Origin: Bdellovibrionales bacterium
Lineage (GTDB): Bacteria > Bdellovibrionota > Bdellovibrionia > Bdellovibrionales > UBA1609
Assembly (NCBI GenBank): GCA_965203095.1
Contig: OZ241877.1
Span: forward strand, 1,024,001 to 1,088,000
Direction: 5' to 3'
Length of the DNA stretch: 64,000 bases
Shown here: piece after piece, positions 13,706 to 49,696 of the stretch
Layout of the letters: the number at the start of each line of letters is the position of its first letter
How positions within the stretch are numbered: position 1 is the stretch's first letter
Made by a program: the position numbers and the translations under genes
Notes under the pieces: model-generated
What the model was told of the DNA's origin: nothing
What the model saw: the letters and a program-made list of their open reading frames with translations, nothing else
The model's database searches: none

Positions 13706-14548
13706 ATGAGTAAAACACCTACACCAGATGAAATCTGGAAAATTTTAAAAGAAATTGCTCTCAATCAAAAGGAGTGGGAAAAGAAATGGGAAAAGAAAAG
13801 TTTAGAAGAGGCTCGGCAAGAAAAGAAGAGGGCAGAGGAAGAGGCTCGGCAAGAAAAGAAGAGGGCAGAGGAAGAGGCTCGGCAAGAAAAGAAGAGGGCG
13901 GAAGCAGAGGCTCGGCAAGAAAAGAAGAGGGCAGAGGAAGAGGCTCGGCAAGAAAAGAAGAGGGCGGAAGCAGAGGCTCGGCAAGAAAAGAAGAGGGCAG
14001 AGGAAAAAGCACGGGAGGAAAAAGAATGGGCGGAGTGGAAAAAGAAAGACCAGAAAAAAATAGAGGAAATTCGCATTTTACAAAAAGAAGCAGAGTTGGA
14101 ATCAAAAAAAACGGAGAAGTTGCTTCATAAAGTAATTGGAGATTCTGGAAATCGCTGGGGGAAGTTAGGTGAAAACTTGGTTAAGGGCCAGTTGGCTCAG
14201 CGATTAAAAGAGAGAGGGATTAAAGTGGAAAGGGTAATTACCAATGCAAAAGGCCCTTTTTCAGAGTTTGATCTTATCGCTATCAATGGGAAGGAGGTTG
14301 TAGTTGTGGAAGTTAAAGCCACTTTAGATCCTTCTGATGTTAATGAATTTGAAGAAAATATTAAAAACTTTAAAACTTGGTGGCCAGAATTTAAAAACAA
14401 AACTCTTTATGGTGGAATGGCTTTTTTAATAAAATCTAATCGACAGGCGGATAGTTTAGCACAAAAACGAGGTTTTTTTGTGATTGAGGCGACTGGTGAT
14501 GTGATCTTTCAAAATGAAAAGGATTTTAAGCCCAGAGTCTTTTCTTAA
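13706..14548 (+). CDS. Coiled-coil repeat protein with C-terminal PD-(D/E)XK nuclease-like domain (DUF3782-like), copy 1
   Basis: Strong RBS ggagga. EARQEKKRAE[E/A] x6, then GNRWGKLGE and EFDLIAINGKEVVVVEVK (D...ExK motif). Confidence 0.8.
   Translation: MSKTPTPDEIWKILKEIALNQKEWEKKWEKKSLEEARQEKKRAEEEARQEKKRAEEEARQEKKRAEAEARQEKKRAEEEARQEKKRAEAEARQEKKRAEEKAREEKEWAEWKKKDQKKIEEIRILQKEAELESKKTEKLLHKVIGDSGNRWGKLGENLVKGQLAQRLKERGIKVERVITNAKGPFSEFDLIAINGKEVVVVEVKATLDPSDVNEFEENIKNFKTWWPEFKNKTLYGGMAFLIKSNRQADSLAQKRGFFVIEATGDVIFQNEKDFKPRVFS
13808..14005 (+). repeat. 6 x 33-bp in-frame tandem repeat (EARQEKKRAEE/A)
   Basis: Unit gaggctcggcaagaaaagaagagggcagaggaa, with two variant units ending gcggaagca. 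Confidence 0.95.
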
Positions 14549-15634: not shown

Positions 15635-16390
15635 ATGAGTAAAACACCTACACCAGATGAAATCTGGAAAATTTTAAAAGAAATTGCTCTCAATCAAAAG
15701 GAGTGGGAAAAGAAATGGGAAAAGAAATGGGAAAAGAAAAGTTTAGAAGAGGCTCGGCAAGAAAAGAAGAGGGCAGAGGAAGAGGCTCGGCAAGAAAAGA
15801 AGAGGGCAGAGGAAGAGGCTCGGCAAGAAAAGAAGAGGGCAGAGGAAAAAGCACGGGAGGAAAAAGAATGGGCGGAGTGGAAAAAGAAAGACCAGAAAAA
15901 AATAGAGGAAATTCGCATTTTACAAAAAGAGGCAGAGCTGGAATCAAAAAAAACGGAGAAGTTGCTTCATAAAGTAATTGGAGATTCTGGAAATCGCTGG
16001 GGGAAGTTAGGTGAAAACTTGGTTAAGGGCCAGTTGGCTCAGCGATTAAAAGAGAGAGGGATTAAAGTGGAAAGGGTAATTACCAATGCAAAAGGCCCTT
16101 TTTCAGAGTTTGATCTTATCGCTATCAATGGGAAGGAGGTTGTAGTTGTGGAAGTTAAAGCCACTTTAGATCCTTCTGATGTTAATGAATTTGAAGAAAA
16201 TATTAAAAACTTTAAAACTTGGTGGCCAGAATTTAAAAACAAAACTCTTTATGGTGGAATGGCTTTTTTAATAAAATCTAATCGACAGGCGGATAGTTTA
16301 GCACAAAAACGAGGTTTTTTTGTGATTGAGGCGACTGGTGATGTGATCTTTCAAAATGAAAAGGATTTTAAGCCCAGAGTCTTTTCTTAA
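15635..16390 (+). CDS. Coiled-coil repeat / PD-(D/E)XK nuclease-like protein, copy 2
   Basis: Same as 13706-14548 but with 3 instead of 6 EARQEKKRAEE units and one extra EKKW. Confidence 0.8.
   Translation: MSKTPTPDEIWKILKEIALNQKEWEKKWEKKWEKKSLEEARQEKKRAEEEARQEKKRAEEEARQEKKRAEEKAREEKEWAEWKKKDQKKIEEIRILQKEAELESKKTEKLLHKVIGDSGNRWGKLGENLVKGQLAQRLKERGIKVERVITNAKGPFSEFDLIAINGKEVVVVEVKATLDPSDVNEFEENIKNFKTWWPEFKNKTLYGGMAFLIKSNRQADSLAQKRGFFVIEATGDVIFQNEKDFKPRVFS
15749..15847 (+). repeat. 3 x 33-bp in-frame tandem repeat
   Basis: Same unit as 13808-14005. Confidence 0.95.
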
Positions 16391-20722: not shown

Positions 20723-20911
20723 TTATCTTTTTTTACGCCCTGCCTTTTTTCTTCCGGTTTTTCTGCGAGTCACTTTTTTGCGTCCCGCCTTTTTTCTTCC
20801 GGTTTTTCTGCGAGTCACTTTTTTGCGTCCCGCCTTTTTTCTTCCGGCTTTTTTACGGGTCACTTTTTTGCGTCCCGCCTTTTTTCTTCCGGCTTTCTTT
20901 TTTGCAGGCAT
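20723..20911 (-). CDS. Histone H1/Hc2-like basic pentapeptide-repeat DNA-binding protein
   Basis: 62 aa with 37 K/R and no acidic residue, built from RKKAG/RKKVT/RRKTG pentamers. Strong RBS aggagg and a dedicated terminator. Confidence 0.85.
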   Translation of the reverse strand: MPAKKKAGRKKAGRKKVTRKKAGRKKAGRKKVTRRKTGRKKAGRKKVTRRKTGRKKAGRKKR

Positions 20912-28789: not shown

Positions 28790-30877
28790 ATGAACAAAAA
28801 ACACACTTCTGAATGTGAAATTCAGGGCCAAAAAATTAAAATTGAAACAGGGTTTATGGCTCGTCAAGCGGATGCAGCGGTTCTGGTCAGTTGTGGTGAC
28901 AACCGCGTTTTATCTGCTGTGGTTTCATCTAAAAAGCTCCCTTCAGTGAATTTTTTCCTTTTAACTATAGAGTATCAGGAAAAGTTTTATTCTGTGGGTC
29001 GTGTGCCCGGAGGCTTTTTTAAAAGGGAGGGACGACCCAGTTATGAATCCATTTTGCGTGGCCGGCTAATCGATCGGTCCATTCGCCCGCGCTTCCCAGA
29101 GCATTATCGCTCGGAAACGCAAATAGCCACAGTGATTTTAAGCTCAGATGGGCTTTTCCCAGTGGAAGTTTTAGCCGGTATTGGGGCAAGTTCCGCTTTA
29201 CACATCAGCGATATACCCTTCGAAGGCCCTGTTGCTTTTTTAAAAACCACTTTAAATAAAGGGAAATGGCTTTTGAATCCACAAGAAGAAGGGGAACCAT
29301 CCGATATGGACCTTATTGTTGCGGGAACATTTAAAGGACTGCTTATGGTGGAAGGATCTGCACGATTTGTGTCAGAGGCTCAAGTTTTGGAAGGGTTGAA
29401 ATTTTCTCACCAATCTATGCGACCCATTTTGGAAATGCAAGAAGACTTGAGGCAAAAAACAGGTCAAAAAGCCAAAAGAGATTTTCCCACTATTGAGATA
29501 GAGGAAGAGTTAAGAAAAAAAGTTCAGGAGTTTGTATCCTCTGATTTAGATAAAGCTCTCTTACAAAAAGACAAAAAGACAAGATATTGTATTTATGATG
29601 AGATTGAACAAAAGGCTTTAGAGGAGTTTGTATCTGAAGAAGAGGATCTTACAAAAGAGGTCATATCCATTATTGAAGATTTAAAACACAAAAAAGCCAG
29701 AGATAAGCTCACAAAAAAATCCGAACGGATTGATGGTAGAAGAAACGATGAAGTTCGCCCCATATCCTGTGTGGCGGATATTTTGCCAAGAGCTCATGGT
29801 TCAGCCCTGTTCACGCGGGGGGAAACTCAAGTCCTTGGAGCTGTGACATTAGGAACAGGCGAGGATGAAAAGGTCATCGATAACCTCTGGAACTCTCATA
29901 GCAAAAAGTTTTTCCTTCATTATAACTTTCCTCCTTATTGTGTGGGGGAAACGGGCCGTTTTGGTGGTCAAAGCCGAAGAGAAATTGGGCATGGCTTTTT
30001 AGCCGAAAAGGCTTTGACCGCGGTGATCCCCTCGCATGATAAATTCCCTTATACTATTCGAGTGGTTAGCGAAGTTTTGGAGTCCAACGGTTCCAGCTCC
30101 ATGGGCACTGTTTGCTCTGGAATGATGGCTTTAATGTCAGCAGGGGTCCCTGTCACTGATCAGGTTGCGGGGATTGCCATGGGTTTGATTAAAGAAGGAG
30201 ATCAGGTGATTGTGCTGTCGGATATTCTTGGAGATGAGGATCATCTTGGGGATATGGATTTTAAAGTAGCTGGTTCTAAAGAGGGAATTACAGCTCTACA
30301 AATGGATATTAAAATAGATAGCATAGGTTTTGACATAATCAAAAGGGCACTTGAACAGGCTTTAAAAGGCCGACGGGAAGTTTTAAGTGAAATGCAAAAA
30401 GCCATCTCTGAGCCACGAAAAGAGTTGAGTCAATATGCTCCCAGGATTGAAATTCTAAAAATTGACCCGGAGAAAATCCGCGAAGTGATTGGAACAGGAG
30501 GCAAAACCATCACTGCCATCACTGAGGAAACAGGGGTAAAAATTGATATTGAAAATGACGGAACTTTGTTTATTGCTTCCGTGAAACAAGAGAATTTGGA
30601 AAAAGCAATAAAACTCATTGAACGTATATGTGAAGAGGTAGAAGAGGGGAAGGTTTATGAAGGCTTAGTGACTGGGATTAAAGAGTTTGGAGCATTTGTT
30701 GAGATACTTCCTAAAACCTCTGGTTTGCTTCATGTCTCTCAAATATCTCATAAGAGGGTTGCCAAAGTGTCCGATGTTTTAAAAATGGGAGATAAAATAA
30801 AAGTGAAAGTTGTAAATATAGATAACAGTGGCCGAATCCGCCTCAGTGCCAAAGCAGTTGAGAAAAAAGACAACTAA
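28790..30877 (+). CDS. pnp: Polyribonucleotide nucleotidyltransferase (PNPase)
   Basis: PGGFFKREGRP, RIDGR, HGSALFTRGETQ, ESNGSSSM, EDHLGDMDFKVAG, KH and S1 domains. Confidence 0.98.
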   Translation: MNKKHTSECEIQGQKIKIETGFMARQADAAVLVSCGDNRVLSAVVSSKKLPSVNFFLLTIEYQEKFYSVGRVPGGFFKREGRPSYESILRGRLIDRSIRPRFPEHYRSETQIATVILSSDGLFPVEVLAGIGASSALHISDIPFEGPVAFLKTTLNKGKWLLNPQEEGEPSDMDLIVAGTFKGLLMVEGSARFVSEAQVLEGLKFSHQSMRPILEMQEDLRQKTGQKAKRDFPTIEIEEELRKKVQEFVSSDLDKALLQKDKKTRYCIYDEIEQKALEEFVSEEEDLTKEVISIIEDLKHKKARDKLTKKSERIDGRRNDEVRPISCVADILPRAHGSALFTRGETQVLGAVTLGTGEDEKVIDNLWNSHSKKFFLHYNFPPYCVGETGRFGGQSRREIGHGFLAEKALTAVIPSHDKFPYTIRVVSEVLESNGSSSMGTVCSGMMALMSAGVPVTDQVAGIAMGLIKEGDQVIVLSDILGDEDHLGDMDFKVAGSKEGITALQMDIKIDSIGFDIIKRALEQALKGRREVLSEMQKAISEPRKELSQYAPRIEILKIDPEKIREVIGTGGKTITAITEETGVKIDIENDGTLFIASVKQENLEKAIKLIERICEEVEEGKVYEGLVTGIKEFGAFVEILPKTSGLLHVSQISHKRVAKVSDVLKMGDKIKVKVVNIDNSGRIRLSAKAVEKKDN

Positions 30878-32677: not shown

Positions 32678-34267
32678 ATGGCTGAAGACAAACATATAGA
32701 ATGGAAAGAATCCTGGAGAGATGAATATCTCAAATGGATTTGTGGTTTTGCTAATGCTCAAGGTGGGATTCTTGAAATTGGACGAAATGACAAAGGTAAG
32801 GCTATTGGAGTCAAAAACATATCCAAGCTTTTAGAGGATCTGCCAAACAAAATAAGAGATATTTTAGGAATCCTTCCTGAAATAGATCAAACAAAAGAAA
32901 AAGGCAAAAATCTTATTCAAATAAAAATAAGATCTTATACTCATCCTGTAAATTTCAAAGGCCAGTTTTATTATCGAAGTGGTAGCACCAATCAGGAATT
33001 AAGAGGTTCTGCTCTTCATCATTTCCTTTTAAAAAAACTGGGTAAGACATGGGATAGTATTCCTGTTGAAAAGCTATCTGTTTCTAATTTAGATACTGAT
33101 GTTATTGCAAGATTTTGCAAAATGGCTGTTGAGAAGAAACGACTTACTCCCGGCACCTTGAAAGAAACAAACAATAACTTGATTAAGAAACTGCAATTAA
33201 AAGAAGGGAATCAGCTAAAGCGTGCGACTGTTCTGCTTTTTCATCCTGAGCCTGAATCCTACTTCACAGGTGCTTATATCAAAATCGGTTATTTTGCGAA
33301 CCCCGCGGATATTTTATATCATGATGTTGTTCATGGAGATTTATTTACTCAAGTGGAAAGGACTATGGAACTTCTTTTAACAAAATATCTCAAAGCATTT
33401 ATTTCTTATGAAGGTTTGTATAGAAGAGAAACTTATCCTGTTCCTGAAGAGGTATTGCGGGAGGTGATTTTAAATGCTGTTATTCATAAGGATTATACAA
33501 CGGGAGCACCAATTCAAATCAGAGTTTATGAAGATAAAATTGTAATTTGGAACAGTAGCCGTTTCTCTGATAATTGGACAGTGAAAAAACTGCTTTCAAA
33601 ACACATATCGGATCCGTTTAATCCCAATGTGGCAAAAGTGTTTTTCCTGTCAGGGATGATTGAAGCTTGGGGTAGAGGAATTGAGAAAATGATAGAAGGA
33701 TGCAAAACACATGGAGTTCCAAAGCCTTTGTTTCGTGGGGAGACAACTGGTCTGTGGGTTCAGTTTAAAAACCATGATGCGGAAATGAAGAAAAAGCTAA
33801 AAAAAACGCCTATAGAAACGCCTATAGAAACGCCTATAGAAACGCCTATAGAAATCCTTAAAATACTGGCCTCAAATCCAAATATGACAATTCCTGAACT
33901 GGCACAAAAGATTAAGAAATCAGAGAGTGCTACTTGGCGAGCTGTTCGTAGCCTTAGAAAGTCTGGTCATTTAAAACGAATAGGATCAACAAAAAGTGGA
34001 CATTGGCAAATCATGAAAACAAAAATAAAGAAAAAACTAAAAAAAACGCCTATAGAAACGCCTATAGAAACGCCTATAGAAATCCTTAAAATACTGGCCT
34101 CAAATCCAAATATGACAATTCCTGAACTGGCACAAAAGATTAAGAAATCAGAGAGTGCTACTTGGCGAGCTGTTCGTAGCCTTAGAAAGTCTGGTCATTT
34201 AAAAAGAGTGGGATCAACAAAAAGTGGGCACTGGAAAATCATGAAAAATCAAAATAAAACAAGGTAA
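32678..34267 (+). CDS. AlbA_2 (Schlafen-like) / HATPase_c_4 ATP-binding protein with duplicated C-terminal wHTH
   Basis: EDKHIEWKESW, GFANAQGG, YYRSGST, LREVILNAVIHKDY, IEAWGRGI. HTH repeated twice. Confidence 0.88.
   Translation: MAEDKHIEWKESWRDEYLKWICGFANAQGGILEIGRNDKGKAIGVKNISKLLEDLPNKIRDILGILPEIDQTKEKGKNLIQIKIRSYTHPVNFKGQFYYRSGSTNQELRGSALHHFLLKKLGKTWDSIPVEKLSVSNLDTDVIARFCKMAVEKKRLTPGTLKETNNNLIKKLQLKEGNQLKRATVLLFHPEPESYFTGAYIKIGYFANPADILYHDVVHGDLFTQVERTMELLLTKYLKAFISYEGLYRRETYPVPEEVLREVILNAVIHKDYTTGAPIQIRVYEDKIVIWNSSRFSDNWTVKKLLSKHISDPFNPNVAKVFFLSGMIEAWGRGIEKMIEGCKTHGVPKPLFRGETTGLWVQFKNHDAEMKKKLKKTPIETPIETPIETPIEILKILASNPNMTIPELAQKIKKSESATWRAVRSLRKSGHLKRIGSTKSGHWQIMKTKIKKKLKKTPIETPIETPIEILKILASNPNMTIPELAQKIKKSESATWRAVRSLRKSGHLKRVGSTKSGHWKIMKNQNKTR
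33788..34247 (+). repeat. Intragenic tandem duplication (~33788-34019 and ~34028-34247), each copy starting with a 12-bp repeat (ACGCCTATAGAA x4 at 33806-33853, x3 at 34046-34081)
   Basis: Directly visible near-identical segments encoding (TPIE)n-ILKILASNPNMTIPELAQKIKKSESATWRAVRSLRKSGHLKR. Confidence 0.95.
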
Positions 34268-47124: not shown

Positions 47125-48327
47125 TCATCTCATTCCATTTTTAGTCCAAATATTTACCCACACAGCGAAGGCTCTGGATGGAAGTCTATACGAACCTTTC
47201 TGATTAGGATGATCTATAATAATTTGTCGCTCCTTTAATGCTCTTAAGGCATTGTTGATAGTGCTGGTTTTTATTTGTGAATTTTTTACTATATCCGATC
47301 GAGTCACCCATACATCAGATTGCCGGGCCATGTATTGCAAGACTTTTCTATAATCATTGGAATCTATTTTATCATAAAACATATTATTAAAAAGCTTCTC
47401 CCCTAATTGCTTTAAAGCTCCTTCGTTTTCATCATAGATTCCTTTCCTGACATCCTTTTCATCAATAATATCATCTTGATCCACTTCAAAAGAACTATAA
47501 CAGAACTGTTGCAAAAAATAAGGGTATCCTTCTGCCAGCTCAACTATTAAATCTTTTGCTAATTTTTTAATAATTATTTGTCTTTTATTTTTCGCATTGG
47601 CCTCTTTCATCCCTAAATCTATGACAGTTTTACTGTCTTCTAATGTTAAAGGCTGAAGATTCAAAATGTGAAAAATTCTTAATGAAGACTCATGGCTTTG
47701 TCTTAATCTATTTATAGTTTCCGGAAGACCAGATATTCCAAAACAAACATTATTGCTCTCTATTGTAGCCAACCTCTCAGTCAACAGCTTGAAAAAAGCT
47801 CCTAAATCAGCCTTTCCTTTAGGTTTATCCACATCATCAATCAAAACACATATACCGTCTATTTCCTTTCTTTGGCCAATTTTTTTAAAAAGATTAGCTA
47901 TATGTGGAATGAGCATGTGATTTGGTGTTTTTCTTTCTCTTATTGAGATATATGAAGATTGAATGTTTGCAATTAAGTCTTTTACATGGCTAAAAACTTC
48001 TCTTTTGTTTATTTCTATTTCTGTTTCAGAAATTAATTTGCCAATTATGTTTAAAAAGCTGTCATGTCTCGGTTCTAAATCAACTTTAATAATTGCAAAC
48101 TTATACTTTTCACTATGATCTTTATTTAAAGCACCGTCGGCCAAAGCTCTGGCATATAGCATTAATGACGATTTGCCTATCCCTCGCTCCCCTTGTATTA
48201 AAAAATTTTGTGAGTTCCCATACTTCGCTTGAAACAAACTTTTTTCTATAATTTCTATTTCTTTCTTTCTTCCAGAAAACATGCCAGGATGAATAATACT
48301 GCCCGGTTTAAATGGATTGTATTTCAT
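47125..48327 (-). CDS. AAA+ P-loop ATPase (AAA_16/archaeal-ATPase-like) with C-terminal winged helix
   Basis: NPFKPG..FSGRKKE, GERGIGKSS (Walker A), VLIDDVD (Walker B), GYPYFLQ, and C-terminal wHTH (STINNALRALKERQII). RBS aggagg. Confidence 0.85.
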   Translation of the reverse strand: MKYNPFKPGSIIHPGMFSGRKKEIEIIEKSLFQAKYGNSQNFLIQGERGIGKSSLMLYARALADGALNKDHSEKYKFAIIKVDLEPRHDSFLNIIGKLISETEIEINKREVFSHVKDLIANIQSSYISIRERKTPNHMLIPHIANLFKKIGQRKEIDGICVLIDDVDKPKGKADLGAFFKLLTERLATIESNNVCFGISGLPETINRLRQSHESSLRIFHILNLQPLTLEDSKTVIDLGMKEANAKNKRQIIIKKLAKDLIVELAEGYPYFLQQFCYSSFEVDQDDIIDEKDVRKGIYDENEGALKQLGEKLFNNMFYDKIDSNDYRKVLQYMARQSDVWVTRSDIVKNSQIKTSTINNALRALKERQIIIDHPNQKGSYRLPSRAFAVWVNIWTKNGMR

Positions 48328-48350
48328 TGTTTATTTTCCTCCTAAATTGA

Positions 48351-48670
48351 TAATAACAGCTAATAATCGGTAATAATAGCTAATAATCGGTAATAACAGC
48401 TAATAATCGGTAATAATAGCTAATAATCGGTAATAATAGCTAATAATCGGTAATAATAGCTAATAATCGGTAATAATAGCTAATAATCGGTAATAATAGC
48501 TAATAATCGGTAATAATAGCTAATAATCGGTAATAATAGCTAATAATCGGTAATAATAGCTAATAATCGGTAATAATAGCTAATAATCGGTAATAATAGC
48601 TAATAATCGGTAATAATAGCTAATAATCGGTAATAATAGCTAATAATCGGTAATAATAGCTAATAATCGG
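48351..48670. repeat. Non-coding tandem array of 16 x 20 bp (TAATAATAGC TAATAATCGG), flanked by direct repeat TAAATTGAT (48343-48351 and 48671-48679)
   Basis: Counted directly. Units 1 and 3 read TAATAACAGC. Stop codons occur in all frames on both strands. Confidence 0.97.
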
Positions 48671-48678
48671 TAAATTGA

Positions 48679-48861
48679 TCAAGCCTTTTGAGAGATGGAG
48701 TAAATAAGCACATCAAAGCTCATCCCATCTCGTTTATAAGATTGTTTTATCATTTTCTTTTTTTTCATGCCAATTTTTTCAAACATTCTTTGGCTAATAA
48801 TTTTGTTCATGGCACTTAAACTTTGTAGCATTCTTGGGCTTAATCGATATGGGAAAGCCAT
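48679..48861 (-). pseudogene. C-terminal remnant of a RimJ/RimL-type GNAT acetyltransferase
   Basis: NKIISQRMFEKIGMKK...YKRDGMSFDVLIYSI matches the RimL-family C-terminus. The N-terminal part is missing. Confidence 0.6.
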
Positions 48862-49696
48862 TTTTTTCCTGCTTGAACATAATCTGGATTGATCTCTATC
48901 CCTAAAAAATCAATGCCTAAACTTTTGGCCATAGCACATTCTGAACCCGAGCCCGCAAAAGGAATGAGTGCCATCCCCCCGCTCCCATTGATTTTAGATT
49001 TTAAAAGCCGGGCCGAAAGCTCTAAGGGCTTTTGTGTGGGATGTCTTAAAGGGCTCCTTTCCACCAAACCTTTCCCACCAGCAAGGGCTGAGATTTTTAA
49101 AACATCTCTTGGCAAAGCCCCGTTTTTATGGCCATTATAAATAGTCTCTTTTTGGCCAAATCGGCTGGGAGTCCCCTTTCTCTTTTTACCAATGCACTTT
49201 TGATAAGCCGAAGTATAAGGTTCTCTGATTTGATCTATTTCCAACTGAGGTCTTTTCCCACTCCAAAAGCATAGGTTCATGACACTTTCATGGCTGGTTT
49301 GCCAAAATTTAAGAGAGGGAACAGTTTTGTTAGTGTAATGCCAGACTAACCATTTTTGATTTTTCAAAGGGAATTGGACAGATATATGAGACAGTATTTC
49401 CGGAAAGCCATAAACATAGAGCAAAGCTCCATTTTTTAGACGGGAGAGGCAAAGTTTTATCCAACAAACAGACCAATCCACATAATCCTTTAAATCCCGG
49501 CGATCTTTGTTATTCCCAAAATCTTTCCCTATATTATAAGGGGGATCGGCAATAATCACATCAAAGTTCAGCTGAGAGGGGAGTTTTTAATTACTTCTAC
49601 GCAGTCTCCTAATACAATATTGTTTAATACAGGATTGGGATTTTTGAAAGTTTTTTGGGGAGTGGTTTTTTCTTGTTTTGCTACGCAAAAAGCCAT
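48840..49696 (-). pseudogene. N4C/N6A DNA methyltransferase (beta class), frameshifted
   Basis: RBS gggagg and ATG 49696 give ...NNIVLGDCVEVIK then a stop. One extra A in the A5 run (49584-49588) restores KKLPSQLNFDVIIADPPYN...HPTQKP...PFAGSGS...GIEIN. Confidence 0.85.

Follow-up and report, generated by a model that had tools for sequence, protein, structure and literature searches.

A tandem array of 32 decamers in the genome of a Bdellovibrionales bacterium is, on comparative evidence, very likely bound by the Orc-like AAA+ ATPase whose gene it immediately precedes, and it is probable, with less assurance, that the bound ATPase also represses its own gene. The array lies in the window, by which we mean the whole stretch of 64,000 nucleotides analysed here, and the window belongs to G000, a genome that is 90% complete. 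Because relatives of the ATPase carry related, helically spaced repeats before their own genes, the array is likely to be the ATPase's own docking site, and array and gene move jointly as a stand-alone cassette.

Anatomy and Authenticity of the Decamer Array

The array, a putative cognate operator on the minus strand, occupies window positions 48351-48670 and consists of TAATAATAGC followed by TAATAATCGG repeated 16 times, with the variant TAATAACAGC as the reading of units 1 and 3. On the strand of the ATPase gene, ATTATTACCG and ATTATTAGCT alternate, giving a core ATTA[CG]C each 10 bp. TRF reports a period of 20, 16.1 copies, 99% matches and a score of 632, the highest of the 14 TRF rows in the window. 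The array is 75% AT and stands immediately upstream of the AGGAGG of the ATPase gene (48338-48343, minus strand; a Shine-Dalgarno sequence as read from the letters) and of its ATG at 48327. An earlier sequence-only reading had described a non-coding satellite of 16 units of 20 bp; its non-coding nature was borne out, and TRF, our reading of the units, and the read evidence from runs X1 and X6 agree on the satellite itself. That reading had also proposed a genome-wide search for the 20-mer, which proved to be single copy, with no second occurrence in the 1.80 Mb of G000.

In run X1, which is possibly the source sample, the repeat contig has a depth of 234 against 20.6 for the flank, a ratio of 11.4x where ∼12x is expected by arithmetic, contig depth being a rough guide only. 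Run X6, from a separate study whose runs carry the label sponge metagenome, contains the junction between the RBS and the array together with the first units. Relative to the flank, the depth at the start of the array is greater in X4 (about 29x) than in X1 (about 19x), a difference from which no copy number was derived, since depths summed over contigs do not measure one. The array is confirmed as real and not an artefact of assembly, and it is the longest A-type array seen.

Other tandem repeats in the window include those of 33, 45, and 66 bp at 13805-14034, 15746-15847, and 20729-20896, which are probably coding. A 529-aa protein encoded at 32678-34267 ends in a duplicated HTH-like segment (a 228-bp repeat), each copy of which is preceded by 12-bp in-frame repeats of AAACGCCTATAG (ETPI); these are possibly the protein's own binding sites.

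Flanks of the Array

The 9-bp sequence TAAATTGAT stands on either side of the array on the plus strand, at 48343-48351 and 48671-48679, and had been taken for a target-site-like duplication. The direct repeat exists, but as a mark of insertion it fares badly, with a flanking repeat longer than 5 bp in only 1 of the 28 arrays tested, namely this one. One base of the left copy and the first three of the right copy are contributed by the array itself, leaving about five bases without explanation from the array, and the left copy, read on the gene strand, looks like one more unit of the array, degenerate and last in line before the RBS; it is probably no target-site duplication. The repeat and its unexplained bases are what can be said for the view that the array is an inserted element, or a reverse-transcriptase repeat product, captured with a 9-bp duplication. 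This view is largely refuted, and we give it next to no credence. There is no further copy of the array in the genome that might have its own flanking duplications, a reverse transcriptase as source of the unit was not found in the 90%-complete genome, and homologues at other genomic sites bear the same decamer unit. An empty-site allele was likewise expected under insertion, and its joint was not seen in the reads of four runs searched with the left flank. These results in effect remove the insertion and reverse-transcriptase readings.

On the distal side, the array abuts the TGA of a 60-aa ORF (48679-48861, minus strand). The ORF is a mosaic: only its first ∼15 codons match an ORF that follows a methyltransferase gene in genome G007, and the remainder gave no family hit. 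A GNAT identity considered for this tail was dropped when Pfam gave no hit. The placement of the array between a stop codon and the RBS of the ATPase gene thus holds on the RBS and ATPase side, whereas the stop codon is that of a mosaic ORF. Because so little of that ORF matches G007, the "empty" junction left on removing the array, earlier judged normal and compact, is not a native operon junction. Next to it lies an N6/N4 DNA methyltransferase gene (48840-49696, minus strand), unlinked to the ATPase in G007 and split by an apparent frameshift near 49570-49590, close to a run of A, which may be real, phase-variable, or an assembly error. Given that mla genes, methyltransferase, ATPase, and groEL occupy four separate places in G007, the neighborhood in the window is a recent patchwork.

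The Adjacent ATPase

The ATPase gene (47125-48327, minus strand) encodes a 400-aa AAA+ protein of STAND/Orc-Cdc6 type with a C-terminal winged helix at about residues 324-398. Its Walker A motif (GERGIGKS) is intact, Arg-217, which precedes strand 5 (219-223), is arginine in 118 of 119 family rows, and a GYP motif at 267-269, which we take to be the STAND GxP motif, is invariant. Where the family has DEAD as its Walker B motif, the window's copy has DDVD. Residue 165 is glutamate in 118 of the 119 rows, and the E165D (window 47833-47835) and A166V substitutions are unique among them, with no alternative letter there in the reads of three runs. Given that these changes are unique and uncontradicted by reads, this copy of the ATPase may be impaired; that a hydrolysis-weak protein should be linked with the longest A-type array is speculation from a single case.

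The structure model is confident (pLDDT 92) and comprises an AAA+ core, a helical insert after strand 2, a helical domain, and the C-terminal winged helix. Over its full length it aligns with PAB2304 (2qen; Z 22.2, rmsd 5.5, 325 aligned), SSO1545 (2fna; Z 21.4, rmsd 6.0, 323 aligned), and the DNA-bound Cdc6/Orc1 structure 2qby (Z 20.4, rmsd 6.7, 326 aligned), and this predicted fold places the protein among the STAND/Orc-type AAA+ ATPases that bear a winged helix. The homodimer prediction (score 0.00) carries no weight either way. Pfam ATPase_2 and AAA_16 match weakly, with scores under the cut-off, and the TIGR02928 profile scores 15.7 bits against a cut-off of 181.3; the ATPase lies outside TIGR02928, the family of Orc1/Cdc6 replication initiators. 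Neither an RNase domain nor an effector domain was found in the ATPase, and there is no conserved partner gene among the 391 ORFs called in homologous loci. PADLOC 2.0, with a library from 2023, returned solely weak partial matches (E 1e-4 or worse).

An Orc1/Cdc6-like fold beside an array of 75% AT might also signify a mobile origin, in which an initiator and its iteron- or ORB-like array form an auxiliary origin of replication as in haloarchaeal orc/cdc6-origin pairs, and the family-specific repeats beside the gene do resemble haloarchaeal ORB linkage as set out in the accessible part of PMC3528665. We consider such an origin quite improbable, in view of the TIGR02928 score, the presence of dnaA at C1:990 kb, the lack of a recurring helicase, primase, or other partner, and the empty result of a search through 72,556 plasmids (E 1e-20). 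The decamers, moreover, are contiguous direct repeats, whereas ORBs are inverted and surround an unwinding element. The GC skew of G000 is too unstructured for origin mapping.

Arrays at Paralogous and Homologous Genes

When 954 upstream regions of G000 were ranked by their tandem repeats, the three ATPase paralogues took ranks 1, 2, and 3. Given rank 1, the chance of the other two ranking so is about 2e-6 by our own arithmetic with a simple ORF caller. These two distant paralogues carry arrays of 53 bp x 5.9 and 31 bp x 7.6.

Tandem arrays also stand beside other genes of G000. At L060 (C1:788948-789413), a 70-bp x 6.7 array whose cores are palindromic extends to the start of a Fic_N/Fic gene that has a weak C-terminal wHTH hit. 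At L058 (C1:1724569-1724930), a 23-bp x 15.8 array runs from the stop codon of a Schlafen AlbA_2/HATPase_c_4/wHTH gene and is therefore downstream of its gene, not upstream. Tandem repeats of 31, 63, and 32 bp lie upstream of AAA_14 ATPase genes (C1:1195533-1195637, 30117-30250, 1687268-1687347, and 750075-750139); AAA_14 has 13 matches above cut-off in G000, and upstream regions of AAA_14/DUF4143 genes rank 5, 15, and 17.

The search for the ATPase family gave 1380 hits. Directly upstream of the G007 homologue (67% identity) is the same ATTA[CG]C decamer in 6.7 units, and it recurs upstream of the L029 homologue (59%; 13.8 units, with ACC and AGC alternating as well) and the G006 homologue (50%; 3.2 units), all of them in unrelated genomic contexts. 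The ATTA[CG]C word is also found upstream of the metagenome homologues L071, L073, L074, L075, L092, and L114 (40-60% identical); in a quick version of the tree, the full-length ones among them, at 40-44% identity, sit on branches apart from the Bdellovibrionales clade. In L071, L074, and L092, small genes with 7-9-bp tandem repeats at their flanks surround the cassette, with polysaccharide-export-like genes near (by eye), and two of these ATPases are broken. Their host was judged by eye from neighboring genes, and a search for Bacteroidia relatives gave one genome. One homologue, P0004, has an N-terminal extension resembling translated array.

A three-core pattern occurs in 7 of the 390 genomes of the class, four times before the ATPase, once as a gene-less remnant with the RBS-like sequence of the cassette (G008), and twice as unrelated hits. 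The reversed control pattern hits three unrelated genomes and two of the same arrays. In the genomes searched, four of the five close-subfamily genes have the three-core pattern; in the remaining one, from G017, the word is altered. Inspection of the regions upstream of ATPase homologues, a check that the sequence-only reading had called for, revealed arrays at 25 of 31 Bdellovibrionota loci but at only 7 of the 83 elsewhere, including a marginal one; two loci, one of which (L073) has an array, were set aside from these counts for short flanks. No array precedes 42 of the 52 full-length close-family genes, and several of these 42 lack any forward core upstream despite recognition helices that are near-identical. 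Because these 42 genes and 76 of the 83 loci outside Bdellovibrionota have no array, the tandem operator is not universal in the family. The site is nevertheless conserved with the ATPase gene and specific to it, though absent from those same 76 loci. A regulon of the ATPase in G000 was considered and discarded, since two cores of the A word come together nowhere else in the genome.

Remnants of the cassette were also seen, at L020:3142-3199 and L022 of G008 and at L021 of G002. They comprise an array and RBS-like sequence without the ATPase, and ATPase genes truncated after 22-27 codons, with two cores left. Cores of the C paralogue's word stand at C1:970860-970918 and 973942-974000, upstream of a 118-aa gene present there in two identical copies; they could be what is left of a promoter put to new use, or sites on which the C paralogue acts.

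Core Words, Helical Spacing, and Orientation

Across homologues the core word tracks the protein subfamily. In subfamily A the word is TA[CG]C, recurring at 10 bp; in B it is CGG[CT]A[AG], recurring at 11 bp with links of 20 or 31 bp; and in C it is TTCTATA or TACTAA, spaced at 11+20 bp. With cores picked by eye and units that are not independent, 234 core-to-core distances from 34 loci cluster at 10-11, 19-22, 29-33, and 44 bp, with a mean cosine of 0.935 for their phase at 10.4 bp. Relative to the gene, the array is reversed in L114, L282, and L285. Together, the subfamily-specific words, the helical spacing, and the flipped orientation point to binding of double-stranded DNA. Four further loci, found once the hypothesis existed, show phased cores of their own subfamily's word: L283 and L285 have 11-bp CGGTA[AG], forward and reversed respectively, L284 has AGTAGC, and L282 has a weak, reversed TATTAG. 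Three of the four pass the formal test and L282 fails (p 0.05). At helix position 362, a position chosen afterwards and in few lineages, Gln, Arg, or Lys accompanies T-type cores in 9 of 9 cases and Ser or Asn accompanies G-type cores in 3 of 3, a pairing that is suggestive only.

A neutral satellite, grown by slippage from a short ancestral repeat with no protein bound to it, would be in keeping with core numbers that vary from 2 to 32 among arrays, with the persistence of gene-less arrays (at G008 L020, and as C-type cores that precede another gene at C1:970.9 and 973.9 kb), and with the lack of arrays at most homologues outside Bdellovibrionota. As an account of the array it is nonetheless unlikely, since it leaves unexplained ranks 1-3 of 954, the recurrence of one word on separate branches where the proteins are 40-44% identical, and the retained phasing. 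Both mutS and mutL are present in G000, which also counts against it and led us to reject loss of mismatch repair as the cause of expansion. The expansion step may well be neutral in itself.

Promoter and RNA Features

A single -35/-10 pair was found at the window's array, at its distal edge, where a σ70-like match to consensus, TTGATC-18-TATTAT (9/12; 48653-48682, minus strand), overlaps the distal repeats. Such a distal-edge match is seen at five A loci, the window's included (L016, L028, L029, L023, and L092), and in many B and C loci the match lies just proximal to the array. These positions are consistent but the matches are weak and not above chance in number, with 7 observed against 11.5 expected in shuffles, and among 34 array loci there is no match near the array in 14 and none anywhere in 12.

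Should the distal promoter be genuine, transcription would run through the array as a leader of ∼320 nucleotides. The sequence-only reading had offered two explanations at this level, a repeated RNA resembling type III antitoxins and a stack of -10 boxes directed at the ATPase. The RNA has an MFE z-score of -2.2 in its favor, but its centroid is near-unstructured (-3.5 kcal/mol), Rfam gave no hit for it, the ATPase showed no RNase domain, and reversed arrays exist (L114, L282, and L285). As for the stacked boxes, TATTAT is not conserved across homologues, being absent in L029, L037, L284, and the reversed arrays, and the one -35/-10 pair at the distal edge makes this version weak. An RNA-level or multi-promoter element is, on these grounds, very unlikely. 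No terminator was found between the array and the ATPase gene.

Viral Loci and a Possible Role in Defense

Among viruses, 77 loci contain similar 10-bp repeats, none of them with the ATPase nearby within the flank examined, and control patterns gave 60 loci (reversed) and 94 loci (11-bp spacing). Because the controls match 60 and 94 loci, the word is not enriched in viruses, and because the viral loci have it without the ATPase, the word alone is not diagnostic. The idea that the array mimics phage DNA, with the ATPase sensing a word common in phages, was rejected, the viral pattern being at background rate. MSTV1 ORF7 is the one annotated phage homologue of the ATPase, aligned over its full length with 26% identity over 408 columns, and by eye there is no array in the 260 bases before its gene.

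The solo, patchy, prophage-cargo distribution of the ATPase suggests a role in conflict or defense. One could then suppose that the bound array mainly stores the protein on host DNA, from which loss of or damage to the DNA, as in phage infection, frees it for defense. We think this unlikely, and no less so its more general form, in which the array is a DNA tether, the ORC-like ATPase is released on damage or degradation in a dose set by repeat number, and the principle is shared with Fic, DUF4143, and Schlafen winged-helix genes. Large arrays at other solo effector-plus-wHTH genes of G000 (Fic, AAA_14/DUF4143, and Schlafen-HATPase-wHTH) would fit such a store, as would the seven ATPase homologues in viral contigs, three of which are beside an integrase-like gene by our own reading, and 32 sites would seem to exceed the need of simple repression. 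Yet the ATPase has neither an effector domain nor a conserved partner gene, none of the PADLOC matches was stronger than E 1e-4, and the seven viral copies show no array.

Proposed Mechanism

The reading we favor is that the array is bound by the adjacent ATPase. Of what had been suggested from the sequence alone, a phased array bound by the winged-helix ATPase is the part that comparative evidence of word, phase, and linkage supports well, whereas its centromere or chromatin variant found no support. The winged helix would read each core and the ATP-bound AAA+ domains would oligomerize along the phased sites, lining up the ATPase head to tail across its own promoter and leader at roughly one subunit for each turn of the helix. 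So placed, it would be likely to repress transcription of its own gene. Slippage or unequal exchange may have multiplied a minimal operator of two to four cores to the present 32 with its phase kept, and the extra sites could deepen repression or keep a larger pool of bound protein. A rheostat of expression acting via the number of binding sites, as distinct from -10 boxes, is possible.

A widespread, uncharacterized family of bacterial Orc/STAND-like ATPases thereby gains a predicted DNA site, and because natural cognate and non-cognate pairs exist across three subfamilies, the mechanism of the family is directly testable. That mechanism would reveal how an ORC-fold protein recognizes decamers placed head to tail and whether their number sets the level of expression. 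If borne out, it would also explain the amplification of operators at solo winged-helix genes in small-genome Bdellovibrionales with helical phase kept.

Comparison with Known Systems

DnaA boxes, plasmid Rep iterons, and MalT boxes are cases in which a protein oligomerizes on phased direct repeats to control its own or nearby promoters. The proteins belong to different families, the window's ATPase has no MalT-type sensor domain and no replicon context, and the copy number of its repeats reaches 32. In type III toxin-antitoxin systems such as ToxIN and AbiQ, tandem repeats stand just upstream of a single gene. Unlike these, the window's array has an ATPase as neighbor, free orientation, unstructured RNA, and no terminator between array and gene, so the structured RNA repeats, fixed orientation, and RNase toxin of type III systems are not found here. 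PAB2304 (2qen) and SSO1545 (2fna) are the best whole-length structural matches and share the GYP motif and the weak ATPase_2/AAA_16 hits; the accessible literature, which does not include the SSO1545 paper, gave no DNA site or function for either.

Haloarchaeal Orc1/Cdc6 proteins with their ORBs, as portrayed in the available sections of PMC3528665, are alike in the AAA+ plus winged-helix fold, the intergenic repeats beside the gene, and the family-specific word. The window's system differs in being bacterial and in its contiguous 10-11-bp direct repeats as opposed to inverted ORBs flanking an unwinding element, and contiguous decamers in the same orientation do not make an orc/cdc6-adjacent origin by the description given there. 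From Orc1/Cdc6 initiators in general it differs further in that its ATPase is far under the TIGR02928 cut-off and its host retains dnaA.

Closer in function are Orc-like ATPases that serve as transcription regulators. Orc1-2 of Sulfolobus islandicus recognizes a short motif in promoters and acts there as a regulator of transcription, in a model that includes its own gene (PMC6061795, in excerpt), and by analogy it is a precedent for an Orc-fold promoter-binding regulator. SNJ2 Orf8 and MSTV1 ORF7 are viral Orc1/Cdc6 regulators (PMC10123103 and PMC11375127, in excerpt), the latter being proposed in its paper as a lysogeny-switch regulator. As far as these excerpts go, the three act on other genes or on a lysogeny switch, unlike the case in the window, whose genome has neither a second two-core site nor a recurring partner gene. 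Orc/Cdc6-family ATPases also recur in conflict systems, as stated in the accessible text of PMC10853773 and PMC12839542. The open literature gave no description of the gene-plus-array module. Regulators or initiators with adjacent cognate repeats are a known kind of system, to which an ORC-like ATPase with a decamer array would add a further version.
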